NCBI GenBank assembly: GCA_036396895.1
Contig: DASWKB010000038.1
Coordinates: 13,145 to 77,144, forward strand
Direction: 5' to 3'
Length of the DNA stretch: 64,000 nt
From: a bacterium
GTDB lineage: Bacteria; Omnitrophota; Gorgyraeia; Aquiviventales; Aquiviventaceae
This document shows, one piece after another, positions 14,121 through 32,125 of this stretch (positions are counted from its first letter, which is position 1; the number at the start of each line of letters is the position of its first letter). The position numbers were made by a program, and so were the translations under genes. The notes below the pieces were generated by a model. It was not told the DNA's origin and made no database searches. It saw only the letters and a program-made list of their open reading frames with translations.

Positions 14121-14168
14121 TCCCGCAGCCGGACCATCGGGCGCCCATCCGCGGAGGCGAACGCCGGG

Positions 14169-16160
14169 TCAGAGCCGGCCGCGCACGAGCTGCTGCGCGA
14201 CCGCCGGGTCGGCGAGCGTCGTCGTGTCGCCCAGGTTGTCCACTTCACCGGCCGCCACTTTCCGGAGGATGCGCCGCATGATCTTGCCGGAGCGGGTCTT
14301 CGGCAGCGCGTCGGTGAACTGGATCTTCTCCGGCGTCGCGATGGGACCGATCACCGCACGCACGTGCGACATGAGCTTCTTGCGCAGCTCATCCGTGGGC
14401 TCGACGCCCTGCTTCAAGGTGACGTAGCAGTAGAGGCCCTGCCCCTTCACCTCATGCGGAAACCCGACCACCGCCGCTTCCGCGACCGTTTGGTGCGCCA
14501 CCAGGGCGCTCTCGACCTCCGCCGTGCCGAGCCGGTGCCCCGAGATGTTGATGACGTCATCGATGCGGCCCATCAGCCAGTAGAAGCCGTCCGCGTCGAC
14601 CCGGCAGCCGTCCCCGGTGAAGTACTTGCCCGGGAACATAGAGAAGTACACGTCCTTGATCCGCGTGTGCGCCGGATCGCCGTAGACGCCGCGGAGCATG
14701 CCGGGCCAGGGCTGCGTGATCACGAGCGAGCCGCCTTCGTTGACGGCGGCTTCCGTGCCGTCCTGCCGGAGCACCTGCGGGACCACGCCGAAAAACGGCT
14801 TTGTCGCGGATCCCGGCTTGGTCCCCAGCGCGCCCGGCAGCGGCGTGATCAGAATGCCCCCGGTCTCCGTCTGCCACCAGGTGTCCACGATCGGGCAGCG
14901 CGCCTTCCCGATGACCCGGTGGTACCACATCCACGCTTCCGGGTTGATCGGCTCGCCGACCGACCCCAGGATGCGCAGGCTGGAGAGGTCGTGTTTATTC
15001 GGCCACTCCTCCCCGAGCCGCATCAGGGCGCGGATCGCCGTCGGCGCCGTGTAGAACACCGTCACTTTATACTCCTCGACGATCTGCCAGAACCGGTCGG
15101 GCTCGGGGAACGTCGGAATGCCCTCGAACATGATCGCCGTCGCGCCGTTGGAGAGCGGCCCGTAGACGATGTAGGAGTGCCCCGTCACCCATCCGATGTC
15201 CGCCGTGCACCAGAACAGATCGTCATCGTGCACGTCGAAGATATACTTGAAGGTGACATGGACGAAGAGCAGGTAGCCCGCCGTCGTGTGGAGCACGCCC
15301 TTGGGCTTGCCGGTTGAGCCGCTCGTGTAGAGGATGAACAGCGGCGACTCCGCGTCCATCGGCTCAGGCGGGCACGGCCGGGCGGCCTCCGGACGCGCCA
15401 TCTCCTCATGCCACCAGAGGTCGCGGCCGGCCGTCATGGCGCAGCTGCCGTCGCCCCGGCGGTATACGATCACGGTCTTCACGCTCGGGCAATCCGCGAG
15501 CGCCTCGTCCGCCTTCGCCTTCATGCCGAGGGATTTGCCCCCGTGCACCGCCGCATCCGTCGTCACCAGGAGCCGCGAGTTGCAGTCCTGCAGCCGGTCC
15601 CGCAGGGCGCTGGGGCTGAACGCCGAGAACACGACCGAATGGATGGCGCCGATTCTCGTGCAGGAGAGCATCGCGACCGCCAGCTCCGGGATCATCGGCA
15701 TGAAGAGGGTCACCCGGTCCCCGCGCGTCACGCCGTGCGCCTTCAGGACGTTCGCGAACCGGCACACCTCGGCGTGCAGCTCTTCATACGTCAGGGTCCG
15801 CTTGTCCTTCGAGGATTCCCCCTGCCAGATGATGGCGGGCTTGGTCTTACGCGGCCCATCGAGATGACGGTCGAGGCAGTTGGCGCTCACGTTCAGCTGC
15901 GCGCCGTGGAAATACTCCACGTAGGGATGCTCGGTCTCGCCGATCGTGGACCAGTCGGAGCGTACGACCGCGTCCCAGCGCGTCATCCAGCTCAGGTGCT
16001 CCTCGGCCATCCGGCCCCAGAACGCCTCGGGCGACCGCACCGACTCTTCGTACATCATCCGGTATTCCTCTTCGCCCTTGATGAACGCGCCTTCCCGGAC
16101 TTTCGCGGGAGGATCGAAGCGCCGCTCCTCCTGCAGCAACGACGAAATATCTTGCGCCAT
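14169..16160 (-). CDS. acs: Acetyl-CoA synthetase (AMP-forming)
   Basis: About 660 aa from [18 protein letters not shown]. Carries the AMP-binding signature [12 protein letters not shown] and Acs-specific N- and C-terminal regions. Confidence 0.9.
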
Positions 16161-16187
16161 CGCATCCTCCTTCTCAGTATTCGCGAG

Positions 16188-16274
16188 AAGCTGGAGGTTG
16201 GAGGCTAGAAGCTCGAACATTCCAGCTTCCAGCATCCAGCTTCCAGCATCCAGCATCCAGCTTCCAGCTTCCGA
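16188..16274. repeat. Heptamer-array hairpin element, GCTGGAR family, copy 2 (includes a 7x CCAGCWT tandem array)
   Basis: gctggaggttggaggctagaagctcgaacattccagcttccagcatccagcttccagcatccagcatccagcttccagcttcc, between hypE and acs. Confidence 0.65.
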
Positions 16275-16302
16275 CCAGTGCCCTTGACCCGCGTGATGCG
16301 GT

Positions 16303-17355
16303 CTAGCAGATACGGGGCAGCTGCTCGCCGCTCAGCATATCAAGAATCCGGGAGGATCCGATGGCGCTTTTCAGCGAGACAAGGCCGGGGGTGTCGCCCG
16401 CCACCCGTCCGATTTCGACCGCCTGCTGCCCCAGCGGGTGCGCCCGCATCAGGGCCGCCGCCCGGGGAGCGTCCTGGGGCGCCACGAACGCGACGAACCG
16501 CCCTTCGTTGGCGACGTACAGCGGGTCGAGACCCAGCATCTCGCAGGCGCCGCGCACCTCCTCGCGAACCGGCACGGCCGCCTCATCGACCGCAAGCGGC
16601 ACCCGCGCGCTCTGGGCAAGCTCCACCAGCGCGCTCGCGAGACCGCCGCGGGTGAGATCCCGCAGGCAGTGCACCTCGATCCCGGCCTCCACCAGCGCCG
16701 CGACGAGGCCGGCGAGCGGAGCCGAATCGCTCTCGATCGCGCTCTCGAACTCGAGCCCCTCGCGGACCGCCATGATCGCGATGCCGTGCCGGCCGATGTC
16801 TCCGCTCAGCAGCACCACGTCCCCCGGCCGGATGCGGTCGGGACCGATGACCACGCCGGGCGGCACAAGACCGAGCCCCGCGGTATTGAGGTAGATCCCG
16901 TCGCCTTTGCCCCGGTCCACGACCTTGGTGTCGCCGGTCACGATGTCGACTCCGGCCGAGGCGGACGCCTCCCGCATGGAGCGCACGACTTCCCACAAGG
17001 ACGCCATCGGAAACCCCTCTTCCAGAATGAAGCCCACGGTGAGCGCGACGGGCTTCGCCCCGCACATCGCCAGGTCGTTGACCGTGCCGTGCACCGCGAG
17101 CGAGCCGATGTCACCGCCGGGAAATTTCCAGGGCCGCACGACATAGGAATCCGTCGTCAGCGCCACCCGCGTCCCGTTCACGCCGAGGACGGCGCCGTCG
17201 TGCAGCCGCTCCGGGCTGCCGCCGAAGGCGGGTACGAACACCCGCTCGATCAGCTGGCGCATCAGCTTGCCTCCACCCCCGTGCGCGAGCAGAATCTGCG
17301 GCGTCTCCGTGATCGGCAGCGGACACGCAAGCGACAGCGGGGGGCGCTCGCTCAT
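16303..17355 (-). CDS. hypE: Hydrogenase maturation protein HypE (carbamoyl dehydratase)
   Basis: From [15 protein letters not shown]…; has AIR-synthase-like domains and the HypE C-terminus …PRIC. The ORF in the track has a spurious Arg-rich N-terminal extension. Confidence 0.9.
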
Positions 17356-18458
17356 CGCGCCTCCACCTTCGCCGCGACCCCCCGGTAGCGGTAATAGGCG
17401 GCGCAGGCCCCCTCGGATGAGACCATCGTCGCGCCCATCGGGCGCTCGGGCGTGCAGCGGGTGCCGAACGCGGGGCACTCCGTCGGCTTCTTCACGCCCT
17501 GCAGCACGAGCCCGCTCTCGCACTCGGCGGGCTCCTCCGTATGGCGGTCCGCTACGCCGAAGCGGCGCTCGGCGTCGTGCGCGTCGTACGGCGGCCGCAA
17601 GCCCAGGCCGCTTGCGGGGATGCTCCCGACGCCGCGCCACTTGCGGTCGACGACCGTGAAGACCTCCCGGATCAGCGCCTGCGCCGGACGGTTGCCCGCG
17701 CGCCGGACCGCGCGCGCATACTGGTTCTCGACCTCGGCGCGGCCCTCCTCGAGCTGGCGGACGCACAGGTACACGCCCTGGAGGATGTCGAGCGGCTCGA
17801 AGCCCGTCACGACGATCGGCACGCGGTAGCGCGCGGCCAGCGGGCCGTATTCGGCGGTGCCCATGATCGTGCAGACGTGTCCCGCGGCCAGGAATCCCTG
17901 CACCCGGTTCATGGGCGAGCTCAGGATCGCTTCCATGGCGGGCGGGACGAGCACGTGCGAGACGAGCAGAAAGAAATTCTGGAGGGTCGCCCGGTGCGCC
18001 TGATACACGGCCATGGCGGTGGCGGGCGCGGTCGTTTCGAACCCGACGGCGAAGAAGACGACCTCGCGGTCGGGATGCGCGGCCGCGAGCGCGACGGCGT
18101 CCATCGGCGAATAGACGACCCGGACGTCGCCGCCGCGCGCCTTCACGGCGAAGAGGTCCTCGCGGCTGCCGGGCACGCGCAGCATGTCTCCGAAGGAGCA
18201 GAAGATGACGCCCGGCGCCGCGGCGATCGCGAGCGCTTTGTCGATGAGCTCAAGGGGCGTCACGCACACGGGACAGCCGGGCCCGTGGATCAGCGTGAGC
18301 TCGGGCGGCAGGAGCTCGTCGATGCCGAACTTCACGATGGCGTGCGTCTGCCCTCCGCAGATCTCCATGATCGTCCAGGGGCGCCTCGTGCGATTCGCGA
18401 TCAGCCGCGCGTAGCGGCGGGCGGCTTCGGCGTCGCGGTACTCATCGATGAATTTCAT
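17352..18458 (-). CDS. hypD: Hydrogenase maturation protein HypD
   Basis: 368 aa with MKFIDEYRD…, the GPGCPVCV motif and the CGG motif. ATGA overlap with hypE. Confidence 0.9.
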
Positions 18459-18709
18459 GGCGGCGGCGCCTCAAGTTCCGCGAGCTCGCCCATGCGCCGC
18501 AGGTAGTCGAAGACGACGGTCGCTTCCTGCTCGTCGACTTTGCTGATCGCGAACCCGACGTGCACGATCACGTAGTCCCCCACCCCGGCCTCGGGGACAT
18601 AGGAGAGGTTGACGGGCTTGAGGACGCCGCCGAAGCTCACCTTTCCGGTCCGCGCGCCGGGCTCCTCCCGCTCGAGGCGCACGATTTGTCCGGGCACGCC
18701 GAGGCACAT
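18455..18709 (-). CDS. hypC: Hydrogenase maturation protein HypC
   Basis: [11 protein letters not shown]-terminus (the MCL(A/G)(I/V)P signature), about 84 aa. Confidence 0.85.
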
Positions 18710-21414
18710 CACGTCCTCCGCTCGCTTCGGTCGGCGGCGAGAGCCTGGCCGAGCGACAGTCCGCCGTCATTCGGCGGAACGCGCTGATGCCAGTAGGGGC
18801 GAAATCCGGCATCGCGCAGGCGGCGCACCGCCCGCTCGGTCAGCCGGCGGTTCTGGAAGCACCCGCCGCTGAGCGCGACACGGCGCTCGCCGATCGCGGC
18901 GGCCGCCGCAAGGATATATTCTACCAAGGTCTCGTGCACGTTCGCCGCGATGATTCCCGCGTCCACGCCGCGCCGGCGGTCCTCGAGGAGCCCGCGCACC
19001 ATCGGACCCCAGTCGATCACGATGGGCGAGTCCGCCCCTCCCGGCCGGCCCAGCCGCACAGGGTACGGCCCGGAGCCGTCCGCGCGCCCGGCCACGTCTT
19101 CCAGCAGCATCGCCGCCTGCGCTTCGAACGCCGCGACCTGCCGCAGCCCGATGAGCGCGGCGACGGCGTCGAAGAGCCGCCCGGCGCTCGAGGTGATCGG
19201 CGCGTGGATCCCGCGCCTCAGCATGACCCGCAGCACCTCCCGCTCCTTCGGTGTGAACGCGGCCAGCGCCGGCACCTCGCGGCGCGAAAACGCCCCCTCG
19301 CCGAAGAGCTCGTACAGCACGCCGAGCGCCGAGCGCCGCGGCTCCTTGACGGCCTGATCCCCGCCCGGGAGGCGGAACGTGCGCAAGTGCGCCGCGCGCT
19401 CGAACCCCCGGGCGCCGACGCGAAGGAATTCCCCTCCCCAGACCGTGCCATCGAGCCCGTACCCCGTGCCGTCCCAGGCGACGCCGAGGACCGGCGGCTC
19501 CAGGTCGTTCTCCGCCATGCAGCTGAGCACGTGCGCGTAGTGATGCTGCACCGCCACGACCGGGAGGCCCGTCTGCCCGGCATACTGGGTCGAGCGGTAA
19601 TCCGGGTGGGCGTCGCAGGCGACCGCCTGAGGCCGCGCCTCGTGCAGGCGCGCGAGGTTCTCCGCGGCCTGCTGGAACGCGGCATACGCCTGCACGGTCT
19701 CGAGATCGCCCAGGTGCTGGCTGACGACCACGCCGGAGCCGACGGTGAGCGCGACGGTGTTCTTCAGGTGCCCGCCGACGGCGAGCACGGTCCGGACGGA
19801 GCGCCGCTTCAGCGGCACCGGCAGAGGGGCGTAGCCGCGCGCCCGGCGGATCAGAAGCTCGCGCTCGAGCACGACGCGCACGACGGAATCGTCCACGTGC
19901 CTGGCGATCGGCCGGTTGTGGACCAGAAAGAGGTCGGCAATGCCCTCCAGCCTGTCCAGCGCCTCGCTCTCGTCCGTGCAGATCGGCTCGTCCGAGAGGT
20001 TACCGCTGGTCGCCACGATGGGACCCGCGACCGCCTGAACGAGCAGGTGGTGCAGCGGCGTGTACGGGAGCATGACGCCCAGCGTCCGTTGCCCGGGGGC
20101 GAGGCTCTCCGCCAACGGGGACTCCTCAGGCCGGATCCGCTTCTCGAGCAGCACAATCGGGGCCTGGGGAGACGCGAGGAGGCGCTCCTCGATTTCCGAT
20201 ACGTCGCACTGCGCCCGCACCGCGCCGACCGAGCGCACCATCACCGCCAGCGGCTTCTCCTCGCGCCGCTTGCGCTCGCGCAGTTCCCGCACGGCGCCGT
20301 CATTGCGCGCGTCCGCGACCAGATGGAATCCGCCGAGCCCCTTGACCGCCACGATGCCGCCTGAGCGCACTGCCTCGGCCGCCGCCGCGAGCGCGGCGGC
20401 GTCCCTGGCCAGCACCGCGCCCGCCGGATCCCACAGCGCCAGACGGGGTCCGCAGGCCGGGCAGGCGTTCGGCTGGGCGTGGAACCGGCGGTCGGCCGGA
20501 TCGTCGTATTCGCGGCGGCAGTCCGGGCAGAGCGTGAAGCGGCTCATCGTCGTGGCCGGCCGGTCGTAGGGCAGTGCGAGGATAATGCTGAACCGCGGCC
20601 CGCAGTTCGTGCAGTTGGTGAACGGATACCGGAAGCGGCGGTCGCGCGGATCGTCGAGCTCCCGACGGCAGTCCGCGCACGTCGCCAAATCTGGCAGGAC
20701 GACGCCGGTCCGGGCGCCGCCCTGACCGCTTTGGCGGATGGCGAAACCGCGGAGCCCGGCCGCGTCCAGCCAGCGGACCTCCTCGCTGTACACCGCGGCC
20801 TGTGGCGGGAGATCATGGCGGAGCCCCTCCAGCAGCCGCGCGAGCGTCTCCGGAGCGCCTTCCGCCTCGACGATCACGCCTTGGGGGGAGTTCTGCACCC
20901 AGCCGTCGAGCCCGAGCCGGGTCGCCAGCCGGTGCACGAAGGGACGGAACCCGACGCCCTGTACCGCGCCGGTCAGGGCGACGTGGAGCCGCCGCCGCTC
21001 CTGCCGCGCGATCCGGATCCCGGATTGTTGCGCCATCGGACTCTCCATCCGCCGTGACGGCCCCTCGGCCGCCTCCGTCGAATCCGCCACCGTCACGTCG
21101 ATCACCTCGAGCGCGTGCGCACCCGGCACCTCGATCAGCGCGCCGCAGGCGCCGCACGGGAGCATCGACCCGGCGAGCGCGTCGTGCGTCACGGGCTCAT
21201 CGCGCCCGCACGCGCACCGGACGGACGTCACGCCCGGCTCGATGATGACCTCGGCGGACTCCAGGACGGACCCCGCCGAGGCGGCCGCGAGGGCGTGCCG
21301 CACCGCCTCGGGCGCGAGCGCGCCTCCCGCACGGACCCGCACCTGTCGTACTCCTGTCGGGAACCGCCGGGTGAGCTCGCGCATCAGGGCCAAGACGGAG
21401 CCGGATTCATGCAT
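18709..21414 (-). CDS. hypAF: HypA-HypF fusion: N-terminal HypA (Ni-insertion zinc-finger protein) fused in-frame to carbamoyltransferase HypF
   Basis: MHESGSVLALMRELT… plus CxxC…CxxC (CACGRD…CGACG) make a HypA of about 115 aa. After a linker comes the HypF acylphosphatase domain (LTGAVQGVGFRPFV), two CxxC zinc fingers, and the YrdC and Kae1-like domains, ending …GGLSLGQ. There is no stop codon between the HypA and HypF parts. Confidence 0.75.
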   Translation of the reverse strand: MHESGSVLALMRELTRRFPTGVRQVRVRAGGALAPEAVRHALAAASAGSVLESAEVIIEPGVTSVRCACGRDEPVTHDALAGSMLPCGACGALIEVPGAHALEVIDVTVADSTEAAEGPSRRMESPMAQQSGIRIARQERRRLHVALTGAVQGVGFRPFVHRLATRLGLDGWVQNSPQGVIVEAEGAPETLARLLEGLRHDLPPQAAVYSEEVRWLDAAGLRGFAIRQSGQGGARTGVVLPDLATCADCRRELDDPRDRRFRYPFTNCTNCGPRFSIILALPYDRPATTMSRFTLCPDCRREYDDPADRRFHAQPNACPACGPRLALWDPAGAVLARDAAALAAAAEAVRSGGIVAVKGLGGFHLVADARNDGAVRELRERKRREEKPLAVMVRSVGAVRAQCDVSEIEERLLASPQAPIVLLEKRIRPEESPLAESLAPGQRTLGVMLPYTPLHHLLVQAVAGPIVATSGNLSDEPICTDESEALDRLEGIADLFLVHNRPIARHVDDSVVRVVLERELLIRRARGYAPLPVPLKRRSVRTVLAVGGHLKNTVALTVGSGVVVSQHLGDLETVQAYAAFQQAAENLARLHEARPQAVACDAHPDYRSTQYAGQTGLPVVAVQHHYAHVLSCMAENDLEPPVLGVAWDGTGYGLDGTVWGGEFLRVGARGFERAAHLRTFRLPGGDQAVKEPRRSALGVLYELFGEGAFSRREVPALAAFTPKEREVLRVMLRRGIHAPITSSAGRLFDAVAALIGLRQVAAFEAQAAMLLEDVAGRADGSGPYPVRLGRPGGADSPIVIDWGPMVRGLLEDRRRGVDAGIIAANVHETLVEYILAAAAAIGERRVALSGGCFQNRRLTERAVRRLRDAGFRPYWHQRVPPNDGGLSLGQALAADRSERRT

Positions 21415-21973
21415 CGGGCACCGCCGGCTCAGGCGCGCGCGGAGGCGCGGACGGACACGCCAGGTCCCGCAGGATGCGCCCCGCGACCTTCGCAGACGCC
21501 CGTCGCACCGCGGGCGTGACCGGCGCTCCGGGATCAAAGCAGTCCCCCTCGATGCCGTACACCATCACCCGGGCCGGCAGACGGCGCATCGCCCGGGCCA
21601 GCTCGATCGCGTCGGCGACGCCCATCCCGTGCGTCGAGTGCTGGCGCAGCTCAGCCGGTACGGGACCCTCGCTCACGGCGAGCCGGTGGATCGTCCCCGG
21701 CCGAGCGCCGGAGGCGACGGCATCGATGAGCACGACGTGCTCATGGGCCGCCCAGGCATCCAACAACTCCGTCAGCGCGCCCCCGGCTTCGAGGATCTCG
21801 ACGCCCGGCAATGCCGCGGACCGAATGCGGCGCGCCGCCAGCACCCCGGCGGCGTCATCGCCGCGGAGCGTGTTCCCCATGCCCACCACGAGCACCCGCC
21901 CGGCCGGCAGAGGCGCCGCCGGACCGGCCGATGCCGCATCCGTCCCGGATGTCCGGCGCGCACGTCCCCGCAT
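21407..21973 (-). CDS. Hydrogenase maturation endopeptidase (HycI/FrhD/HoxW family)
   Basis: VLVVGMGNTLRGDDAAGV (GNxLxxDDG motif), about 160-188 aa, immediately downstream of the large subunit. Confidence 0.75.
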   Translation of the reverse strand: MRGRARRTSGTDAASAGPAAPLPAGRVLVVGMGNTLRGDDAAGVLAARRIRSAALPGVEILEAGGALTELLDAWAAHEHVVLIDAVASGARPGTIHRLAVSEGPVPAELRQHSTHGMGVADAIELARAMRRLPARVMVYGIEGDCFDPGAPVTPAVRRASAKVAGRILRDLACPSAPPRAPEPAVPDA

Positions 21974-21976
21974 GGC

Positions 21977-23300
21977 TCACTCCCGGAACAGCCGCAGCTT
22001 CAAGAAGTGCGTGGAACACGAAATGCACGGGTCGTAGTTCCTCACGGCCTGCTCGCATTGCCACTCGAGTTCCTTCGCCGGGAGCGAGAGCCGTTCCGGC
22101 ACAAACGCCCGGAGATCCTGCTCGATCGTGGCCTGGTTCACCGCCGTCGGAGACACGATCTTGGCGTCCCGGATCGTCCCCGCGTCGTCGATCGTGTACC
22201 GGTGGTAGAGGATCCCCCGCGGCGCCTCGGTGACGGCGTAGCCCGTGCCCGCGCGGGGCCGCACTTCGACGGCGGGGGCGTCGGGCGGCTCGTACGCCTC
22301 GATGATCCGCAGCGCTTCCTCGAACGCGAACACCGTTTCGACCCCGCGCACCAGGATGCTCCGGAACGGGTTCCGGCACGAGTCGCTCAGGCCGGCCTGC
22401 CGCGCCGCGTCTTGCGCGACCGACGGAAGGCGCTCGAAGTTCAGGCTGTACCGGGCCAGCGGCCCGACGTGCGCCGTGCCGCGGCCCTGCACCACGCTGT
22501 GCAAGGCGGTCGAATGCGGCTGGTGTTGCTCCAGCAAGTGGGCATCGTAGTCCCGGACCTCGATGTCGAGGCCTTTGTTGGACACGAGCCGTCCTTCGTT
22601 CAGCGGGTACTCCTCGGCGTGCCGGAGCGCCACGAACTCATAGTCCTGCTCGAAGTCCGGGTAGGACAGCGTGGCCAGCCACGACATCGTCTTCACGGCG
22701 GCGTCGCGCCCCCAGGCCAGTTCGTCGCGCATGACCGCCAGTTCCGACTTGGTCGGCACCCGGTAGAATCCGCCGATCTTGACGTTGATCGGGTGGATCT
22801 CCCGTCCGCCCAGGAGCGTCATGAGCGTATTGCCGGCCTTCTTCATGCGGAGGCCGCGCTGGACGAGCTCAGGATGGTCTTTGGCCATCTGCACCGCGTC
22901 CTGATACCCGAGGAAATCCGGCGCGTGGAGCAAAAACATGTGCAGCACGTGGCTCTCGATCCATTCGCCGCAGTACAAGAGCCGCCGGAGCGCCCGCAGC
23001 GGCCCGTCCACGGTCACGCCGCAGATCTGCTCCATCGCATGCACGGCGCACATCTGATAGGCGACCGGGCAGATCCCGCAGATGCGCGCGGTGAGATCCG
23101 GCGCTTCGCGGAAATCCCGGCCGCGCAGCAACGCCTCGAAAAACCGCGGCGGCTCGACAATGCGCAGCTTCACGTCCTTGACGTCCCTCCCGCGGATGCG
23201 GATGTCGAGGCCGCCCTCGCCCTCCACCCGGGCGAGATAGTTCACCTTAATGTGACGCGTCGCGGTGCGGGGCATGGGCTTCACTCTCCCGTCGGAAGAC
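21977..23300 (-). CDS. hydA: [NiFe]-hydrogenase large (alpha) subunit, group 3b (sulfhydrogenase/NADP-coupled type)
   Basis: N-terminal [10 protein letters not shown] and C-terminal [10 protein letters not shown] Ni-binding CxxC pairs. About 440 aa. Confidence 0.85.
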
Positions 23301-24044
23301 ATCGGCATAGGCGTTGTACGTCCGGAAGCTGCGCACGAGGTCCGCCTCATGCGCGCCCAGCTGCTTCCACTGCTCGCTCAGCGCGCGGGTGTTGGCGCTT
23401 TCCATCGGGCCGAAACACCCGTAGCAGCCGCGGGAGAAAGCCGGGCAGATCGCCCCGCAGCCGTCCTGGGTGACGGGACCCAGACACGGCGTCCCGTGGG
23501 CCGTCATCACGCACGTCAGGCCGCGACGCTTGCAGGTGAGGCAGACGCTCGACGTCGGCAGGTTCGGCGCCCGTCCGTTCAGGAGCGCGCTGAAGACTTC
23601 CAGGAGCTGCGCCTTGTTGATCGGACAGCCCCGCAGTTCCAGATCCACCGTCACGTGGTCGATGATCGGCGTCGAGCGCTCCAGCGTCTCGATGTACTCC
23701 GGTTTGGCGTAGACGATGGACACGAACTCGTTGACCTTGCGGAAATTCCGCAGCGCCTGGATCCCGCCCGCGGTCGCGCACGCCCCGATGGTCACCAGCA
23801 TCCGGGACGCCCGCCGCACCTGTTGAATCCGCTCGGCATCATGGGAGGTCGTCACGGACCCTTCGACCAGCGAGACGTCATACGGCCCCTTCACGACGGC
23901 CCGTGACGCCTCAGGAAAATTCGCGATGTCCACCGCGCCCGCCACCGCGAGGAGCTCGTCCTCGCAGTCGAGGAGGCTCAGCTGACACCCGTCGCAGGAC
24001 GCGAATTTCCAGACTGCCAGTGTCGGCCGCTTCACCGCTCCCAT
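23247..24044 (-). CDS. hydD: [NiFe]-hydrogenase small (delta) subunit, group 3
   Basis: [12 protein letters not shown]…IGACATAGG, a short group-3 small subunit lacking a Tat signal. Confidence 0.8.
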
Positions 24045-24045
24045 G

Positions 24046-24906
24046 TCATATCTCCCGCTTGGCCAGCCACGGTTCCACGCGATCGACCCGAAACACCGGG
24101 CCGTCCTTGCAGACAAAGAACGGCCCGAACTGACAGTGCCCGCAGAGCCCGATGGCGCACTTCATATTGCGCTCCAAGCTGACGTAGATCCGGTCGTTCG
24201 TCACGCCGCGCTTCTGGAGCTCCTGGACGGCAAATCGCATCATGATCTCGGGACCGCAGACCATGGCGAGCGCCTGCAGGGGATCGAACCCGGCCCGCCG
24301 GATCAGGGGCGTCACCACCCCGACGTTCCCGCGCCAGCCCCCTTCCCCCCGGTCGACGGTGACCTGGACGTCGAGGTCGAATCGCCCGCCCCAGAGCCGC
24401 AGCTCGTTGCGGAAGAGAATGTCGCTCGGCGTCCGGGTCCCGTACAGCAGCACCACGCGCCCGTACCGGGACCGGTGCGCCAGCACGTGATAGATGGCCG
24501 GCCGCAGCGGCGCCAGCCCGATCCCGCCCGCGACGATCACGACATCCCGGCCGGCGGCGAGGTCCAGCGGCCAGCCGGTGCCGAAGGGCCCGCGCACGCC
24601 GAGGAGCCCTCCGCGTCCAAGACGGCTCATGGCGTTCGTCACCGCGCCCACGGCGCGCGTGGTATGCCCGACGCGCACGGTGGATGCCGGATCGCCCGAG
24701 ATCGAAATCGGGACTTCTCCCACCCCGATCACGTCGAGCATGTTGAACTGTCCGGGCCTGAAGGGCCGGACGCGCGAGCCCGGCTGCGGCTGCAGCTCCA
24801 TCGTAAACGTGTCGGCCGTTTCCTTCCGCACCCGCTTAATGAGAAACAGGTCCGGCCGCATCGGATCGGCGCCCCGCCCGTTCGTCTTGGTCTTCGCGCG
24901 CATCAC
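24046..24906 (-). CDS. hydG: Hydrogenase gamma subunit (PyrK/AsrB-like FAD/NAD(P)-binding, 2Fe-2S)
   Basis: FNR-like fold and the C-terminal [10 protein letters not shown] 2Fe-2S motif. Confidence 0.8.
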
Positions 24907-25363
24907 GCTCCCCCGTAGAGGTCCTGCAATTGCAGGCGAGCCGACTCCAGCCGGTCCGCGATCACCTGCGAGAAGCGCCGCAGGAGTTCATACCCCAGGT
25001 CGTGATCCTGCTCGCATTTCTTCCGCAGACACTCGCCGTCCAGCACCACGGCGCGGACCGGCGTCAGGGCGCGGGCGTCAAAGCGCCACTGATGCGGCGG
25101 GATGAGCCACGACCAGCCGAGCACGTCCCCCGCGGAGACGGTCTGAATCGTCCGGGGCGACCCGCCCACCGGCGGCAGCTCGATCCCGACGCGGCCTTCG
25201 CGCAGCACGTAGAACGCATTCGCCGGCTCGCCCGTGCGGAATATGTACGCCGCGGGCTGCACGGCGACGTTCCGCGCGCATCCGGCCAACACCGTGACGT
25301 AGGGGGCCGGAACATCATGGAAAAACGGGTGGTCGGCCAACAGCGACGCCAGATCGCGCATCA
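24903..25363 (-). CDS. Standalone cyclic-nucleotide-binding (cNMP/CAP effector) domain protein lacking an HTH
   Basis: About 150 aa from [16 protein letters not shown]…; has the beta-roll signature ([18 protein letters not shown]…). It overlaps the hydB stop (ATGA) and the hydG start, so it is embedded in the hydrogenase operon. Confidence 0.6.
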
Positions 25364-26545
25364 GGAGCCTCCTGGGGTGGCCGGCGGATCGCACCGCTCG
25401 GACTCGCGGATTTCCCGGACTTCCTCGGTCACATCGATGCCAACGGGACACCAGCTGATGCAGCGCCCGCACCCCACGCATCCCAGGGTCCCGAACTGGT
25501 CGACCCACGTCGCCAGCTTATGCGTCAGCCATTGCCGGTATCGCGCGCGCGTCGAGCTCCGGATGCTGCCGCCGTGAATGTAGCTGAACGCCATCGTGAA
25601 GCATGAATCCCATTTCCGGACCCGCTCCGCCGTCGTCCCGGTCAGGTCGGTGACCTCCTCCACCGTCGAGCAGAAACAGGTCGGGCACACCATGGTGCAA
25701 TTCGCGCAGGCGAGGCACCGCGACGCGACCTGATCCCAGCGCGGGTGGTCCAGATGCCGGTAGAGCAGGTCCTTCAGGCCGTCCACCTCCAGCGTCCGGC
25801 CCATCCGGGCGGCCGTCTCCGCCACCGCCGACGTCGCGCGGGCCACCGTCTCCGGATCGGCCGGCCGGTGCGCGAGCTCGGCGAGGAGCTCCCCGCCGCG
25901 CGCCGTGCCGACCTCGATGAGGAATTCATGACGCTGCGCGTCGCACAGCTCGGTGAGCGCCAGGTCAAATCCCGTCGTGGCTGCCGGGCCAGACTGCACG
26001 GACGCGCAGAAGCAGGTGCCGCCCGACTGGGTGCAGTTGACCGCGATCAGGCACGCGGATTGACGGCGGGCCGCGTACTGCGGATCGGCCCACGTCCCCT
26101 CGAGCAGAATCCGGTCCTGCACCGCGATCGCCTGAAGCTCGCATGCCCGCACGCCGAGGAACGCCAGCTTCTCACGCGGCGCGCCGCCCCCCGTGAACGC
26201 CGGCGCCCGCCCGGAGCGATCGACCCGGCAGACGGTCGCCACGGGAGGGTACAGCCAGCGCTTCCATGACTGCGGGCTGAGCGTATAGCCGAAGAGCGTG
26301 TCGTGCTCCCGGCGGAAGAGCCGGTAGCGCCCCGGGGCCTGCTCGTCGCCCCACCCCGCCGGCAGCGCCTCGGGCCCATCGAGTTCATCGTAGACCACGG
26401 CGCCGTCCCGCACGGTCGGACCGATCACCCGGTACTCCCGCTTGCGCAGCGCGTCGAACAGGCTCCCGAGCGCGGCGCGTTCCATGAGCGCCCGCCCCCC
26501 CGTCCCGAGGGCCCGCCGATTCCCCTGTGATGCCGTGCCGCCCAT
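25361..26545 (-). CDS. hydB: Hydrogenase beta subunit (AsrA-like, multiple 4Fe-4S clusters)
   Basis: CLACANCTMVCPTCFC plus further Cys clusters; about 394 aa. Confidence 0.8.
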   Translation of the reverse strand: MGGTASQGNRRALGTGGRALMERAALGSLFDALRKREYRVIGPTVRDGAVVYDELDGPEALPAGWGDEQAPGRYRLFRREHDTLFGYTLSPQSWKRWLYPPVATVCRVDRSGRAPAFTGGGAPREKLAFLGVRACELQAIAVQDRILLEGTWADPQYAARRQSACLIAVNCTQSGGTCFCASVQSGPAATTGFDLALTELCDAQRHEFLIEVGTARGGELLAELAHRPADPETVARATSAVAETAARMGRTLEVDGLKDLLYRHLDHPRWDQVASRCLACANCTMVCPTCFCSTVEEVTDLTGTTAERVRKWDSCFTMAFSYIHGGSIRSSTRARYRQWLTHKLATWVDQFGTLGCVGCGRCISWCPVGIDVTEEVREIRESERCDPPATPGGS

Positions 26546-26558
26546 GCGTGGTCTCCTC

Positions 26559-27587
26559 TCACGATCCGTCCGGCGCGTCGCCGGGCCGGGGACGCAGCGC
26601 GTAGGAACGCAGCACCTTCATGTAATTGGCCCGCTCGAACGCTTCGGGCTCGGCCACCGCCACCGTGCTCATGCTGCCCTGCATCTGCTGGACGGACTCG
26701 TATTCGTGCTCTTCCATCCACCGCACGAGGCCGGCCGTGAGCGTCTGCACGTGCTCGGGGCCGTGGCGCAGCAGCGCCGAGGTCATCATGGCCACCCGCG
26801 CGCCGGCCATCATGGCCTTCAGGACGTCCTCCGCCGTGTGGACGCCCCCCGTGACCGCCAGGTCCGCGCGCAGGCAGCCGTAGAGCATCGCCACCCACTG
26901 CAGGCGAAGCCGCAGCTCATCCGACGTGCTGAGCCGCAAGTTCGGGACGACCTCCAGCCGCTCCAGATCCAGATCCGGCTGATAGAACCGGTTGAACACG
27001 ACGAGCGCATCCGCCCCCGCGGACTCCAGGCGGCGGGCGATGTGGGCCAGCGCGCTGAAGAACGGGCTGAGCTTGACGGCCACCGGGATGTCGATGCTCG
27101 CCGCCACGTCCCTGACCAGCTGGACATACATCGCCTCGACGTCCGCGCCGCTGGTGTCCGGATTGGTCGGGATGAAATAGACGTTGAGCTCCAGCGCGTC
27201 TGCGCCGGCCTCCTGGATCCGCTTGGCGTAGCTGATCCAGCCGCCGGTGGAGACGCCGTTCAAACTGCCGATGATCGGGATCCCCACCGCCGCTTTCGCC
27301 CGCCGGATGTGCTCGAGGTACTCCTCGGGTCCGAGGTTGTAGCGCGTCATGTCCGGAAAGTAGGTGAGCGCCTCCGCGAAGCTCTCCGTCCCGTAGGAGA
27401 GGAACCGGTCCAGGTCCTGGCTCTCCAGAACGATCTGCTCCTCGAACAGCGACGGCAGCACGACGGCCGCGATGCCCGCGTCCTCGAGGCGCTGGATGCT
27501 CCGGAGGTCCTCCCCCAAGGGCCCGGCCGAGGCGACGAGCGGGCTGCGCAGCGTCAATCCCAGGTAGCGCGTCGTGAGGTCAGGCAT
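26559..27587 (-). CDS. Dihydroorotate dehydrogenase-like (PyrD class 1-like FMN TIM-barrel) protein
   Basis: …[11 protein letters not shown]…, [11 protein letters not shown] and [19 protein letters not shown] match the DHOD family. Sits between PFOR and hydB. Confidence 0.65.
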
Positions 27588-30500
27588 GAGGGGCCTCCGG
27601 CGGCGCGTCCGTCACGGCGCTGGACGCCAGGTGCTGGTAGCGGCGCCATCGCACCCTGACGTCCTCCTGCGCGAGCTCCAGCAGGCGCTTGGCCTCCTCC
27701 GGATTGCTGTGCGCCAGCATGGTGTACCGGGTCTCGTTGTAGATGTAGTTCTCCAGGGGGATGCTGGGCGGTCCGGAGTCGATCAGCAGCGGGTGCTTGC
27801 CGTCCCCCGGGCGCGCCGGGTGGTACCGGAACAGCGGCCAGTGCCCGGATTGAACCGCGGCTTTCTGCTGGTCCATCCCGTGCACGAGGTCGTAGCCGTG
27901 CGCGATGCAGTGGCTGTAGGCGATGATCAGCGACGGCCCATCGTAGGCTTCCGCTTCGAGAAAGGCCCTCAGGGTCTGCATGTCGCTTGCGCCCATGGCC
28001 ACCTGCGCGACGTACACGTGCCCGTAGCTCAGCGCCATGAGCGCCAGGTCCTTCTTCGGCATCTGCTTGCCGCTCGCGGCGAACTTCGCGACGCCAGCCC
28101 GCGGCGTGGCCTTGGACATCTGGCCACCGGTGTTCGAGTACACTTCCGTGTCCAGCACGAGCACGTTGACGTTGTGCCCGGAGGCCAGGACGTGGTCGAG
28201 ACCGCCGTAACCGATGTCGTACGCCCAGCCGTCCCCGCCCACGATCCAGACGGTCTTCTTGACCAGGACGTCCGCCAGTCGCTCCAAATCGGCCCCCTCC
28301 TGCTCCGCCAGCCCGCGGAGCCGCTCCTTCAGGCGCGCCACGCGCTGCCGCTGCGCCCGCAGGCCGGTCTCGGAGCTCTGGTCGGCGTTGAGGATCGAGT
28401 CCACGAGCTCCTCGCCGACGATGTCGCCGAGCTTGACCAGCAGCCGCTTGGCATAGGCCCCCTGCGCGTCGAGTGCCAAGCGCATGCCCAAGCCGAATTC
28501 CGCGTTGTCCTCGAAGAGGGAGTTGGCCCACGCCGGCCCGCGGCCGTCCCCGTTCGCGGTCCAGGGCGTGGTCGGAAGGTTCCCGCCGTAGATGGAGGAG
28601 CAGCCCGTCGCGTTGGCGATCATCGCCCGGTCGCCGAAGAGCTGGCTGAGCAGCTTGAGATACGGCGTCTCGCCGCATCCCGCACAGGCGCCGGAGAATT
28701 CGAACAGCGGCGGCAGGAGCTGCACGTCCTTCACCTGCGCGAGCGCGAGCGCCTCCCGGTCCGCCTCGGGCAGCGACAGGAAGAACTCCCAGTTGTCCCG
28801 CTCGGCCGTCCGGAGCGGCTCCTGCGGGTGCATGTTGATGGCCTTGTGCCGGACTTCGCGCTTGCTCTTGACCGGACACACCTCCACGCACAGGGCGCAT
28901 CCGGTGCAGTCTTCCGGCGCGACCTGCAGCGTATAGCGGCGGCCGCCGAACTCCCGCCACCGGGCGGGCGCGGACTTGAACGTCTCCGGCGCGCCCTGGA
29001 GCCGGTCCGCCGGATAGACCTTCCCCCGGATCACCGCATGCGGGCAGACCAGCACGCACTTGCCGCACTGCACGCAGAGCGTCTCGTCCCACACCGGGAT
29101 CTGCAGCGCGATATTGCGCTTTTCCCAGCGGGCCGTGCCCGTCGGATAGGTGCCGTCGTCCGGCAGCGCGCTCACGGGCAGCTGGTCCCCCTGCCCGACG
29201 ATCATCCGCCCCAGGACGGACTTGACGAACTCCGGCGCCTGCGCGGGGACGGGCGGCAGGAGCTCGAGCGCGCCGTCCGCCTCGGCGGGCACGGCGACCT
29301 CGTGCAGGTGCTCGAGCGCGTGATCGACCGCCGCGAAATTCTTCTGGACCACGGCTTCCCCCCGCTTCCCGTACGTCTTCTGGATGGAGGCTTTGATCGC
29401 CGTGATCGCCTCCTCCCGTGGCAGGACGCCGCTGATGGCGAAAAAGCAGGTCTGCATGACCGTGTTGATCCGCCGGCCCATCCCCGCTTCCTGCGCCACC
29501 CGGTACCCGTCGATGACGAAGACGCGCAGGCGCTTCTCGATGATCTGGCGCTGCACGGGGCGCGGCAGATGCGCCCAGACCTCCCCCGGCCCGTACGGGC
29601 TGTTGAGCAGGAACGTCGCCTCGGAGCGGGCGACGGAGAGGACGTCGAAGCGCTCCAGGAACGAGAACTGGTGGCACGCGACCACGCTCGCCTGCGTGAT
29701 CAGATAGGCCGAGCGGATCGGCCGCGAGCCGAAGCGCAGGTGGGAGACCGTCATGGATCCCGACTTCTTCGAGTCATAGACAAAGTACCCTTGCGCGTAG
29801 AACGGCGTCCCCTCGCCGATGATCTTGATGGAGTTCTTGTTCGCCCCCACCGTCCCGTCGGATCCGAGGCCGTAGAAGATCGCCCGGTGCGTATCCGCGT
29901 CCTCGGTCGAGACCTCCGGGTCGTAGGCCAGGCTCGTCATGGTGACGTCGTCCACGATGCCGACCGTGAAATGGTTCTTCGGAGAGGCGCTCGAGAGCTG
30001 ATCGAACACGCCCGTCAGCATCGCCGGGGTGAACTCCTTGGACGAAAGCCCGTACCGGCCGCCGATGATCTTCGGATGCGTCCGGAAGGGCGCCCGCCCG
30101 GCCGACACGGCTTCCTGGACGGCGGCGACGACGTCCAGGTACAGCGGCTCGCCCGCGCTGCCGGGCTCCTTGGTGCGGTCGAGCACCCCGATGGCGGTCA
30201 CCGTGGGCGGCAGCGCGGCGATGAAGTGCTCCACCGAGAAGGGGCGGTAGAGCCGGACGTTGATGAGCCCGACGCGCGCCCCACGGGCGGTCAGGTACTC
30301 AACGGTCTCCTGGGCCGTTTCGGCGCTGGAGCCCATCAGGACCACCACGTGCTCGGCATCCGGCGCGCCGAGGTAGTCGAAGAGGTGGTAGCGGCGACCC
30401 GTCAGGCGGCCGAGGGCGTCCATCGCGCCCTGCACGATCGCCGGACACGCGAGGTAATACGGATTGGAGGCTTCGCGGGCCTGGAAGTGCACGTCCGGGT

Positions 30501-31161
30501 TGTGCGCCGTGCCCCGGATGACCGGCCGGTCCGGAGTGAGCGCGCGGGCTCGGAACGCGCGAACCAAGTCGTCGTCGATCAGGGCCCGGAGATCCTCGGG
30601 GGCGAGCCGTTCGACCTTCATGACCTCGTGCGAGGTCCTGAATCCGTCGAAGAAATGCACCGCGGGCACGCGGGACTTGAGCGCGGCCGCGTGGCTCACC
30701 AAGGCGAGGTCCATCGCCGCCTGCACGGAGCTGGAGGCGAGCATGGCGAACCCGGTCGCGCGCGCGGCCATCACGTCGCTGTGGTCGCCGAAGATCGACA
30801 GCGCCTGGGTCGCGATGGACCGGGACGCGACGTGAAACACCGTCGGGAGCAGCTCCCCGGCGATCTTGTACATGTTCGGGATCATGAGGAGCAGGCCCTG
30901 CGAGGCGGTGAACGTCGTGGTCAGTGAGCCCGCCTGGAGGGCGCCGTGCACCGCCCCCGCGGCTCCGCCTTCGCTCTGCATCTCTTCAACCGAGGGAGGA
31001 ACCCCCCACAGGTTCGGCCTGCCCTGGGTCGCCCACTGATCCGCCCATTCCCCCATGGTCGAAGAGGGGGTGATGGGATAGATCGCGATCACCTCGCTGA
31101 GTTGATAGGCGATCTCGGCAACCGCCTGGTTGGCATCGAGCGTCACGCTCGGGCGTGGCAT
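27580..31161 (-). CDS. nifJ: Pyruvate:ferredoxin (flavodoxin) oxidoreductase, single-polypeptide NifJ/PFOR type
   Basis: 1193 aa with ferredoxin-like [12 protein letters not shown] and the TPP motif [16 protein letters not shown]. Confidence 0.9.
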
Positions 31162-31247
31162 CGCGTCCCCTCCCTTGTCTCGTCCCCTGCAGCGTCCGAT
31201 CTGACGTCCTGAGCTTACCTATGAGATACCTGAATATACCGCCGCCT

Positions 31248-31267
31248 TCTATGATGGCTGTCATAGA
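31248..31267. promoter_or_regulatory. Inverted repeat TCTATGA-N6-TCATAGA about 90 bp upstream of the PFOR start, in a locally AT-richer region
   Basis: tctatgatggctgtcataga. It shares the CTATGA half-site with the palindrome upstream of the Crp/Fnr gene at 36328. Confidence 0.35.
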
Positions 31268-31394
31268 GGATTCCTGCATTGGAGGCATAAACGTACCGTG
31301 AGAAAGCGAGATAGTTCCATCAAATGGGCTTGGCTATGACCTGGCGCATACCGTATTGAAACGGGACCGCACTGTCTCGGAGGCCGCTGGCGGG

Positions 31395-32057
31395 TTAGAG
31401 ACGGATTTTCCCTGACAGCAAGAGAAGCTGCCGGTCGTCCCAATCCGCGCCGCGCCGGATGCTCTGGATGCCCCAGGCGAGCGTAGCGGAGAGTTGCTTG
31501 GTGAGGGAGGTCTGGAGGCCCGCGAAGAGGCGATTCTGGTTCCAGCCCCCGTGGGGGGTCTCGAAGAAGGGTTCCTCGCTCGCACACACCGCGAGCCGGC
31601 CGTCGGTGCCCGGCAGCGTGTACACCGCTTGAATGCGGTTGCGGTAGCGCCACTTCACGTCATCGGAGGCGCCTTCGATCACGCGGATCTCCAGGCGCGC
31701 CCGGTTCTCGAACTTCACGGGGCCGACGGCGACGTGCGGAATCAGATCAAACATCGGCCGGTGCTCGTCGCGCCAATGGCCGTCTTGGCCCTTCTCCTGC
31801 ATGTAGCTGTAGACCGCTCCGGCCCTGAGATGCGGCAGCACCTGGACGGCGGCGCTCCCCTCCCAGTAGACGAAGAAGATCTCCCGCATGTCGTCCCGGT
31901 ACCGGGTCTGCTCGACCAGGGTCCCCGAGACCCGGCCGCGCGTGAAGAGCGGCCACACGGTTTCCTGCCACAGGTGCCAGTCGTCCGATGCCCGGACGGC
32001 CGGCGTCACCGCGAGACTCCCGAGCACGAGCACGCATGCGAGACCGAAACGGGACAC
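31395..32057 (-). CDS. Secreted hypothetical protein (signal peptide)
   Basis: MSRFGLACVLVLGSLAVTPAVRA signal peptide, 220 aa, no recognisable motif. Confidence 0.45.
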   Translation of the reverse strand: MSRFGLACVLVLGSLAVTPAVRASDDWHLWQETVWPLFTRGRVSGTLVEQTRYRDDMREIFFVYWEGSAAVQVLPHLRAGAVYSYMQEKGQDGHWRDEHRPMFDLIPHVAVGPVKFENRARLEIRVIEGASDDVKWRYRNRIQAVYTLPGTDGRLAVCASEEPFFETPHGGWNQNRLFAGLQTSLTKQLSATLAWGIQSIRRGADWDDRQLLLLSGKIRL

Positions 32058-32125
32058 GAATCCTCCTCAGCTCAGTGAACAGTGAACAGGCAAAAGCCAA
32101 AAGGCAAACGCACAAGTGACAAGGA

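Follow-up and report, generated by a model that had tools for sequence, protein, structure and literature searches.

We analysed a 64,000-nucleotide stretch of an Omnitrophota genome (contig DASWKB010000038.1 of assembly GCA_036396895.1, positions 13,145 to 77,144 of the forward strand), which is called the window throughout. At 16303-31161 it carries a cluster that begins with a gene for pyruvate:ferredoxin (flavodoxin) oxidoreductase (PFOR), continues with a gene for a protein of 342 amino acids (aa) that resembles dihydroorotate dehydrogenase (DHOD), and then runs through the genes of a [NiFe] hydrogenase and of its maturation. A preliminary description of this DNA, made from the letters alone, had taken the cluster as a single module and proposed that the DHOD-like protein could be an extra catalytic subunit of the hydrogenase. 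We consider it likely that the cluster consists of two separately conserved modules lying side by side, probably as one operon in this organism, and that the DHOD-like protein is functionally tied to PFOR rather than to the hydrogenase and is not a DHOD. The first module would be a nifJ-type PFOR with a translationally coupled downstream flavoprotein of the family NF005741, which has the fold of DHOD and of dihydropyrimidine dehydrogenase (DPD). The second would be a standard bacterial group 3b operon for the beta subunit, a HoxI-like protein with a cyclic-nucleotide-binding (cNMP) domain, the gamma, delta and alpha subunits, an endopeptidase, and HypA/F, C, D and E.

The two genes of the first module are as follows (FMN, flavin mononucleotide; TIM, triosephosphate isomerase; nt, nucleotides).

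27580-31161, minus strand: PFOR (nifJ), homodimer-type pyruvate:ferredoxin (flavodoxin) oxidoreductase, 1193 aa; TIGR02176 1810 bits against a cut-off of 911
26559-27587, minus strand: DHOD-like protein, predicted FMN TIM barrel, 342 aa; NF005741 480.6 bits (cut-off 303); overlaps the end of PFOR by 8 nt

Conservation of the two modules

Relatives of the DHOD-like gene with 62-73% identity were collected from species-representative genomes at 80 loci, which span Methylomirabilota/NC10/Rokubacteria, Acidobacteriota, Gemmatimonadota, Chloroflexota, Planctomycetota, Nitrospirales, Hydrogenedentota and others, and homologues of every gene of the window cluster were located at each. In every one of the 80 loci the gene just before the DHOD-like gene, and on its strand, is PFOR. 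The distance from the PFOR stop to the DHOD-like start is at most 3 nt in 70 of the 80, and the two genes overlap by 1-8 nt in 46 of the 80. None of the hydrogenase genes hydB (beta), hydG (gamma), hydD (delta) or hydA (alpha) was found downstream of the DHOD-like gene in any of the 68 loci where 3 kb or more of downstream sequence was available. The association with PFOR also extends to more distant members of the family, which still follow PFOR at L173 (52% identity), L174 (45%), L167 (42%) and L164 (39%). The L164 locus has a tandem pair of DHOD-like paralogues behind PFOR. Only one fusion was seen among the 150 best family representatives, a Response_reg-DHO_dh protein of 500 aa (L170, P0310).

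All open reading frames (ORFs) flanking the pair in the 80 loci were clustered, and no third conserved neighbour was found. The largest real-looking cluster covers 15 loci; the next, with 13 loci, is of low complexity and its translation looks out of frame. Neither a GltD-like nor an sll0743-like partner emerged from this clustering.

A reciprocal survey was centred on hydB homologues and covered 80 metagenome loci and two further contigs (L082 and L083). The cNMP gene stands directly 3' of hydB in 55 of the 58 loci with enough downstream sequence, and likewise in L082 and L083; after it normally come hydG, hydD, hydA and the protease gene, and this module recurs without PFOR. Neither PFOR nor a close DHOD-like gene was found upstream of hydB in any of the 24 loci whose upstream sequence extends for 5 kb or more. 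The cNMP gene is therefore the rule, a regular HoxI-like part of bacterial 3b operons (55/58 loci). Among the loci compared, the PFOR/DHOD-like pair and the hydrogenase genes are juxtaposed only in this metagenome-assembled genome (MAG). This juxtaposition is a minor variant, and the cluster is made of known parts.

Family, active site and fold of the DHOD-like protein

The 342-aa protein matches NF005741 (PRK07565, "dihydroorotate dehydrogenase-like protein") over its full length, with residues 1-330 aligned to positions 1-330 of the 335 in the profile. The Pfam domain DHO_dh reaches 58 bits. All models of genuine PyrD remain below their cut-offs: NF005574 gives 92.9 bits against 269, TIGR01037 86.2 against 270 and NF041011 83.8 against 330, and the class 2 models give at most 37 bits against cut-offs of 200-619. 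The PreA model NF006183 gives 81.2 bits against 335 and covers the barrel only (positions 1-329 of 422); the C-terminal 2x[4Fe-4S] ferredoxin domain of the PreA type is absent from the protein.

The active site was mapped by aligning Lactococcus lactis DHODA to a profile of 123 diverse family members. The FMN framework is kept: Asn127 of DHODA corresponds to N135, Lys164 to K172, the GG pair to G247-G248 and the GT pair to T269-S270. Across the 123 members, K172 and G248 are conserved in at least 95% and N135 and S270 in 85-95%, and G247 and T269 are invariant in a 27-sequence alignment of closer relatives. The residues for catalysis and orotate binding are replaced, with Lys43 becoming P45, Asn67 P78, Cys130 F138 and Asn132 P140. 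Most of the 26 close homologues in the alignment have Tyr where this protein has F138. In an alternative register of the alignment Cys130 falls on V136, and again neither Cys nor Ser occupies the catalytic position. The 27-sequence alignment contains no invariant Cys and, in the active-site loop, no invariant Ser. Because the only Cys of the protein, C238, is not conserved, the protein has no Fe-S cluster. A proton-donor Tyr in the catalytic loop, as in old yellow enzyme, was considered and dropped; Y137 is not conserved in the wider family. As judged from these comparisons, the 342-aa protein is very probably a flavoprotein but neither a dihydroorotate nor a dihydropyrimidine dehydrogenase.

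No solved structure within the family was found by a search with the family profile. The nearest structures by profile are DHOD B (PyrD) and DHOD A of L. lactis, with E values of about 1e-13, and also the FMN domain of pig DPD. In an AlphaFold2 model of the DHOD-like protein the barrel core is confident. A Foldseek search with this model placed the DPD FMN domain and the class 1 DHODs nearest, at 17-22% identity; query-normalised template-modelling (TM) scores among the 50 matches listed are 0.59-0.68, with DPD and DHOD A/B on top. Three segments, 48-83, 201-216 and 307-342 (the C-terminal helix region), are strongly conserved yet of low confidence in the monomer model, and their near-invariant residues include E50 and R319. 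These segments are compatible with ordering on a partner, but the alignment is shallow and the argument weak.

The family is large. A word-indexed search found at least 8000 homologues at E <= 1e-10, and an exhaustive search found 1228 clusters (50% identity) at E <= 1e-30. In the literature we found no paper that assigns a function to the NF005741 family and nothing usable on nifJ together with pyrD. A 2025 paper in the Journal of Biological Chemistry that names PFOR and DHOD concerns subunits of the PyrK/NfnA type, not the NF005741 family.

Organization of the gene cluster

The window has a G+C content of about 69%, and its minus strand carries nearly every gene. Because almost the whole window is coded on that strand, co-directionality says little; by itself the shared strand is uninformative for an operon here, and the argument is carried by the overlapping junctions. 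Pfam and NCBIfam searches identified 12 consecutive minus-strand ORFs in 16303-31161, in the order, from 31161 downward, PFOR, DHOD-like, hydB, cNMP gene, hydG, hydD, hydA, endopeptidase, HypA-HypF, hypC, hypD and hypE. The gene content, order, strand and outer coordinates agree with the preliminary description; its count of fifteen genes does not, as the cluster holds 12 ORFs and, with the HypA and HypF parts of the fusion taken separately, 13 functions. The 11 junctions from PFOR to hypE measure -8, +13, -1, -4, +1, -29, +3, -8, -4, -4 and -4 nt. These values, from -29 to +13 nt, are compatible with the single transcription unit suggested earlier, with its start upstream of PFOR. The seam between the PFOR/DHOD-like pair and the hydrogenase genes is a 13-nt gap (26546-26558). 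Scans of 13800-32500 for sigma-70 promoters and intrinsic terminators detected no excess over shuffled sequence and placed no site at the gene junctions; they are uninformative at this GC content.

PFOR and its upstream region

PFOR is a single polypeptide with the Pfam domains POR_N, PFOR_II, POR, EKR, Fer4 and TPP_enzyme_C, which is the full nifJ-type set. It aligns end to end, without an extra domain, with the PFOR of Moorella (6cin, 1412 bits, residues 4-1180). Upstream of it lie a DUF2490 gene, an ATP-dependent phosphoenolpyruvate carboxykinase (ATP-PEPCK), a CBS protein, a hemerythrin and two regulators of the Crp/Fnr family. The 233-nt region 5' of PFOR contains two copies of a palindrome.

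31250-31265, no strand: palindrome TATGA-N6-TCATA, perfect; 89-104 nt upstream of the PFOR start codon; candidate Crp/Fnr-type operator
31335-31350, no strand: second copy, one mismatch; 174-189 nt upstream of the PFOR start

With at most one mismatch, TATGA-N6-TCATA occurs at 4 sites in the window against 0.10 expected, all of them upstream of genes; the further sites are 36327-36342 and 58132-58147. One palindrome lies 56-71 nt upstream of a Crp/Fnr-family gene, and another precedes a helix-turn-helix (HTH) gene that adjoins the nitrite/sulfite reductase gene. The consensus is about ATGAC-N4-GTCAT. This palindrome is a candidate operator of the local Crp/Fnr regulators. Together with the genes upstream of PFOR, it leads us to propose a low-oxygen regulon in which PFOR through hypE would be transcribed from a promoter upstream of PFOR.

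The group 3b-like hydrogenase

The structural genes of the hydrogenase and the cNMP gene are the following (FAD, flavin adenine dinucleotide).

25361-26545, minus strand: hydB, beta subunit (AsrA-like, 4Fe-4S), 394 aa; Fer4_22 E = 9.5e-34; ShyB 142, HydB 139.5 and AsrA 115.8 bits
24903-25361, minus strand: cNMP-binding-domain-only protein (HoxI-like), 152 aa, no HTH; PF00027 E = 2.3e-14; 1-nt overlap with the hydB stop
24046-24906, minus strand: hydG, gamma subunit (FAD/NAD(P)-binding, 2Fe-2S; PyrK/AsrB-like), 286 aa; NAD_binding_1 and DHODB_Fe-S_bind
23247-24044, minus strand: hydD, delta (small) subunit, 265 aa; Oxidored_q6; ShyD 165.5 and HydD 149 bits
21977-23275, minus strand: hydA, [NiFe] alpha (large) subunit, 432 aa; NiFeSe_Hases; ShyA 283 and HydA 260 bits

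A ribosome-binding site of hydB, GGAGA, lies within the 13-nt gap after the DHOD-like gene. For hydG the scores are 205.9 bits on NF006220, 180.8 on AsrB, 176 on ShyC and 161.9 on the PyrK model; the NCBIfam and Pfam matches show gamma to be PyrK/AsrB-like and beta AsrA-like, in line with the PyrK-homologous gamma and AsrA-like beta described earlier. On other NCBIfam models hydA scores lower (FrhA 127, VhuA 124.5; Frh, Vhu and NiFeSe models all at most 127 bits). Its best matches in the PDB are 9nez (sulfhydrogenase 1 alpha, 237 bits) and 5yxy (cytosolic NiFe-hydrogenase alpha, 236 bits), which we take to be the Pyrococcus furiosus and Thermococcus enzymes, and the next distinct proteins are 7t2r (156 bits) and the NAD-reducing hydrogenase 5xf9 (148 bits). 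The NiFe-ligand motifs of hydA are RICGIC (residues 64-69) and DPCISCSTH (residues 415-423), and the 9-residue tail after His423 fits the adjoining endopeptidase. The genes of the heterotetramer (alpha, delta, AsrA-like beta and AsrB/PyrK-like gamma) are contiguous, and the same order is found in dozens of loci. The best matches, the set of subunits and the NiFe ligands all mark the hydrogenase as group 3b-like, as had been described.

The position of the hydA start codon is uncertain. Translation from the ATG at 23275 gives a 29-nt overlap with hydD, and the longest ORF begins at 23350. In related loci hydA begins within a few nt of the hydD stop. The phosphate-binding cassette of the cNMP protein is non-canonical, with LGW for FGE and RFDA for R[ST]A, and the protein may bind something other than cyclic AMP or cyclic GMP.

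Maturation genes, hairpin and Acs

Downstream of hydA the cluster continues with the maturation genes and is then adjoined by a hairpin element and the gene for acetyl-CoA synthetase (Acs).

21407-21973, minus strand: hydrogenase maturation endopeptidase (HycI-type), 188 aa; HycI PF01750; TIGR00072 119 bits against a cut-off of 47
18709-21414, minus strand: HypA-HypF fusion, 901 aa; TIGR00143 817 bits, residues 146-894; PF01155 residues 1-103, 34.4 against 28.9 bits
18455-18712, minus strand: HypC, 85 aa; PF01455 and TIGR00074
17352-18458, minus strand: HypD, 368 aa; PF01924, 513.6 bits
16303-17355, minus strand: HypE, 350 aa; AIRS and AIRS_C domains; ATGA overlap with hypD
16187-16276, minus strand: hairpin element between hypE and Acs, built of GCTGGA(A/T) heptamers and an opposing partial complement; not followed by a T-run
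14169-16160, minus strand: Acs, AMP-forming acetyl-CoA synthetase; ACAS_N, AMP-binding and AMP-binding_C domains; adjoins the cluster and might be co-transcribed with it

The HypA-HypF protein begins with MHE, followed by CxC and CxxC motifs, and continues with acylphosphatase, zinc-finger, YrdC-like and Kae1-like domains. HypA is a separate gene of 87 aa in the related Blastocatellia locus L082. A complete maturation set had been claimed for the cluster. HypA (fused), F, C, D and E are present, but no HypB/CobW-type protein was matched in the window ORFs scanned, a scan that left out small ORFs, and hypB may be located in another part of the genome.

As the preliminary description had it, a hairpin precedes Acs. 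Within the 142-nt spacer between hypE and Acs, about seven tandem heptamers and their partial reverse complement form a long imperfect hairpin. Its RNA fold has a free energy of -59.5 kcal/mol against -47.9 +/- 3.8 for shuffled sequences (z = -3.1), and the terminator scan did not report it. The heptamer pattern has 8 matches in the window against 0.1 expected. Two more copies of the heptamer occur at 4641-4660, at the 5' end of an AI-2E transporter ORF. The heptamer hairpin might be a small repeated element, similar to repetitive extragenic palindromic (REP) sequences, or a structure that stabilises mRNA.

Proposed role of the DHOD-like protein

At low oxygen, pyruvate oxidation by PFOR would yield acetyl-CoA, CO2 and reduced ferredoxin, and surplus reductant, once on NAD(P)H, would be released as H2 by the NAD(P)-linked 3b enzyme. 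The hydrogenase Hyh of Mycobacterium smegmatis is said to vent excess reductant as H2 in this manner. The cluster from PFOR to hypE is plausibly one low-oxygen fermentation operon, and the context that points to low oxygen consists of the two Crp/Fnr genes, the hemerythrins, the CBS protein and PEPCK upstream, and a palindrome common to the upstream regions of PFOR and Crp/Fnr. The DHOD-like flavoprotein very probably works with PFOR, a central enzyme of anaerobic carbon metabolism. As a tentative proposal, it may be an FMN-carrying partner that takes electrons from the Fe-S chain of PFOR or from ferredoxin and passes them to a small acceptor; such a role would resemble that of DPD, whose FMN domain is fed by Fe-S clusters. 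It is rather doubtful, though conceivable, that PFOR and the NF005741 protein make up an obligate, ferredoxin-independent two-protein pyruvate:acceptor oxidoreductase, widespread in soil and freshwater bacteria, in which FMN is reduced directly by the distal [4Fe-4S] cluster of PFOR and in turn reduces a small acceptor. Such an obligate pair would cover Methylomirabilota, Acidobacteriota, Gemmatimonadota, Chloroflexota and probably cyanobacteria and actinobacteria. If true, it would be the bacterial counterpart of the eukaryotic pyruvate:NADP+ oxidoreductase (PNO) and might explain the use of PFOR by largely aerobic lineages. That the barrel also bridges PFOR to the beta-gamma module of the hydrogenase in this MAG is very improbable.

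Several points weigh against these readings. The case for a physical association of PFOR with the DHOD-like protein comes from synteny and from translational coupling; the best 150 family representatives include no PFOR/DHOD-like fusion, and the inspected portions of two alignments with solved PFORs contain no lineage-specific docking insertion of note. Four of the six members sampled at 39-42% identity do not adjoin PFOR. FMN binding by the DHOD-like protein is a prediction, and the structural model is only moderately confident (mean predicted local distance difference test score 72.5). The electrons from PFOR arrive on ferredoxin, but 3b hydrogenases are held to work with NAD(P)H, and the cluster encodes no enzyme that would carry electrons from the one to the other. 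As to the operon reading, an internal promoter may lie ahead of hydB.

According to the preliminary description, the DHOD-like barrel would sit on the gamma and beta subunits, as in the PyrD-PyrK and PreA-PreT pairs, and would give an H2- or NADPH-dependent reductase of a dihydroorotate-like substrate. In the window the DHOD-like gene does end 13 nt before hydB, the gamma subunit does contain DHODB_Fe-S_bind with 161.9 bits on the PyrK model, and the fold of the barrel is nearest to the DPD FMN domain and DHODB PyrD. However, adjacency of DHOD-like and hydrogenase genes is unique to this contig (0/68 and 0/24), the hydrogenase module is complete and conserved without the DHOD-like gene, that gene has PFOR as its neighbour in 80/80 loci and overlaps the PFOR stop here and in most orthologous loci, and the orotate-binding and catalytic residues are absent. 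The extra-subunit idea fails because the DHOD-like gene is not conserved next to hydB, an outcome that the preliminary description had itself named as refuting, and we regard this idea as highly improbable. The preliminary description had also named grouping with bona fide PyrD as a way in which its proposal could fall; the profile and active-site comparisons place the 342-aa protein outside bona fide PyrD, so that route does not apply. Indeed, it is scarcely credible that the protein is a genuine class 1 DHOD of pyrimidine synthesis in a chance location. The DHO_dh match of 58 bits, the DHOD fold and the JGI/KEGG-style label "dihydroorotate dehydrogenase (fumarate)" speak for it, but the protein falls short of every PyrD equivalog, the catalytic Cys/Ser, Lys43, Asn67 and Asn132 are lost, and the gene is conserved with PFOR, not with pyr genes.

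The main rival to an electron-accepting partner of PFOR is a protein that is co-expressed with PFOR but acts independently, either as a flavoenzyme on a PFOR-linked metabolite or in protection or repair of an oxygen-sensitive enzyme in mostly aerobic lineages. We regard this as possible, if doubtful. Synteny indicates functional linkage, not contact; the lack of PFOR fusions among the 150 representatives and of an extra docking domain in PFOR fits such a protein, and some distant members of the family stand alone or by unrelated genes, one being fused to a receiver domain. However, stop-start overlaps in 46/80 loci across phyla are typical of subunits made in a fixed ratio, and, as a weak argument, the conserved segments 48-83 and 307-342, of low confidence in the monomer, are compatible with ordering by a partner. 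A different question is whether the two modules are separate, abutting transcription units, with no link between pyruvate and hydrogenase implied. The modules never adjoin in the other loci compared, the 13-nt gap at the seam has its own ribosome-binding site, and hydrogenase operons elsewhere begin at hydB with their own upstream regions. Against this, 13 nt is too short for an intergenic promoter, which would have to sit inside the DHOD-like gene; there is no terminator-like site at the seam, and candidate operator palindromes lie upstream of PFOR only, not at the seam. Moreover, Synechocystis induces nifJ and hox together under microoxia (PMC11368403). On balance, we think separate units unlikely. 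The cluster could also run in the reductive direction, with H2 as the reductant, acetate activated by Acs, PFOR acting as pyruvate synthase and PEPCK leading to oxaloacetate, which would amount to acetate assimilation. The AMP-forming Acs downstream, an enzyme that normally activates acetate, and the ATP-PEPCK upstream of PFOR agree with this direction, and 3b hydrogenases are bidirectional according to the literature. However, the Crp/Fnr, hemerythrin and CBS neighbours better fit a low-oxygen fermentative response, and the cluster has no device for energy-driven reduction of ferredoxin. Electrons at the level of NAD(P)H from a 3b enzyme cannot reduce ferredoxin without extra energy input. 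We consider the reductive direction improbable.

Other genes of the window and wider meaning

Outside the cluster, multihaem cytochromes c (Cytochrome_C7, Paired_CXXCH and MtrC/MtrF-like), a weak MtrB/PioB-like outer-membrane barrel, a NapC/NirT-type cytochrome, a cytochrome b and a Rieske protein are encoded in 40687-50709, and ResB and CcsA-type genes for cytochrome c assembly in 37049-40572. The block looks like an extracellular or periplasmic electron-transfer module. A single ORF at 1376-3328 joins the domains of HemD (uroporphyrinogen-III synthase) and HemE (uroporphyrinogen decarboxylase), and other genes of the haem pathway are scattered, with glutamyl-tRNA reductase (GluTR) at 50963-52207 and an amine-oxidase/protoporphyrinogen-oxidase-like ORF at 1-1494. 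Two hemerythrin-domain proteins, NnrS and a nitrite/sulfite reductase are encoded at 34703-35425, 52542-53261, 53284-54873 and 56046-57851, with ArsR- and HTH-type regulators alongside, which suggests that much of the window serves metabolism that responds to O2 and NO. Crp/Fnr regulators, hemerythrins, PEPCK, PFOR, the 3b hydrogenase and Acs together make the window a compact genetic portrait of what is probably a low-oxygen programme in an uncultured bacterium.

The result that can be transferred to other genomes is the quantitative demonstration that a family mis-annotated as "DHOD" is a translationally coupled partner of PFOR across phyla. The label "dihydroorotate dehydrogenase (fumarate)" on the 342-aa protein and on thousands of its homologues should not lead to their being counted among the pyrimidine enzymes, and the cNMP gene should be treated as the regular fifth gene of bacterial group 3b operons.

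Comparison with known systems

The hydrogenase shares its four subunits, NiFe ligands and cleavable C-terminal tail with sulfhydrogenases I and II of P. furiosus and the cytosolic hydrogenase of Thermococcus (9nez, 9e15, 5yxy). It differs from these Thermococcales archetypes in that hydA reaches 283 bits against an equivalog cut-off of 700, and the window has the fifth (cNMP) gene and a longer N-terminus of beta. A gene of the cNMP type in a 3b cluster of a methanotroph has been called HoxI, after the soluble hydrogenase of Ralstonia eutropha (group 3d), and NADPH has been proposed as the ligand of HoxI (PMC12319191); a targeted literature search on HoxI with NADPH gave nothing usable. HoxI of R. 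eutropha is likewise a small protein with only a cNMP domain, encoded in an operon for a cytoplasmic NAD(P)-linked [NiFe] enzyme, and our use of the label follows PMC12319191.

The DHOD-like protein has the same TIM barrel as class 1B DHOD (PyrD-PyrK) and DPD/PreA-PreT, in which the FMN barrel is fed by the Fe-S centres of a partner. Unlike them, it has only 17-22% identity, lacks the catalytic Cys and the Asn/Lys that bind orotate or uracil, and neighbours PFOR rather than a protein of the PyrK/PreT type. In the PNO of Euglena and Cryptosporidium, PFOR is fused to a P450-reductase-type flavoprotein that binds FMN, FAD and NADPH, and electrons are handed over directly without free ferredoxin. 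The partner in the window, by contrast, is a separate barrel of the DHOD fold without a recognisable NAD(P) domain, and the likeness is one of analogy only.

The PFOR/DHOD-like pairing is already partly known: NCBI keeps the family as an entry of its own, and the linkage has been mentioned in two papers. The Chloroflexus genes porA (Caur_2080) and "dihydroorotate oxidase" (Caur_2081) have adjacent locus tags (PMC3150298), a comparison made by annotation only. The PFOR gene of Propionibacterium shares its transcript and its regulation with a DHOD-annotated gene, and an Nfn/Fix-like complex of PFOR with the products of the flanking GltD-like and DHOD-annotated genes has been proposed (PMC7650540). 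The likeness, at the level of annotation only, lies in a PFOR-linked DHOD-annotated gene and a suspected complex; unlike in Propionibacterium, no conserved GltD/NfnB-like gene stands by PFOR in the window or the 80 loci, and quinol-oxidising bifurcation is unsupported here. In Synechocystis, nifJ (sll0741), sll0743 and sll0744 ("dihydroorotate dehydrogenase (fumarate)") are listed as one transcription unit that is induced by microoxia together with hox (PMC11368403). The window resembles this unit in having a DHOD-annotated gene after nifJ, with sll0744 compared by annotation only, and departs from it in two respects: PFOR and the DHOD-like gene overlap directly, without an intervening gene, and a hydrogenase operon is appended.

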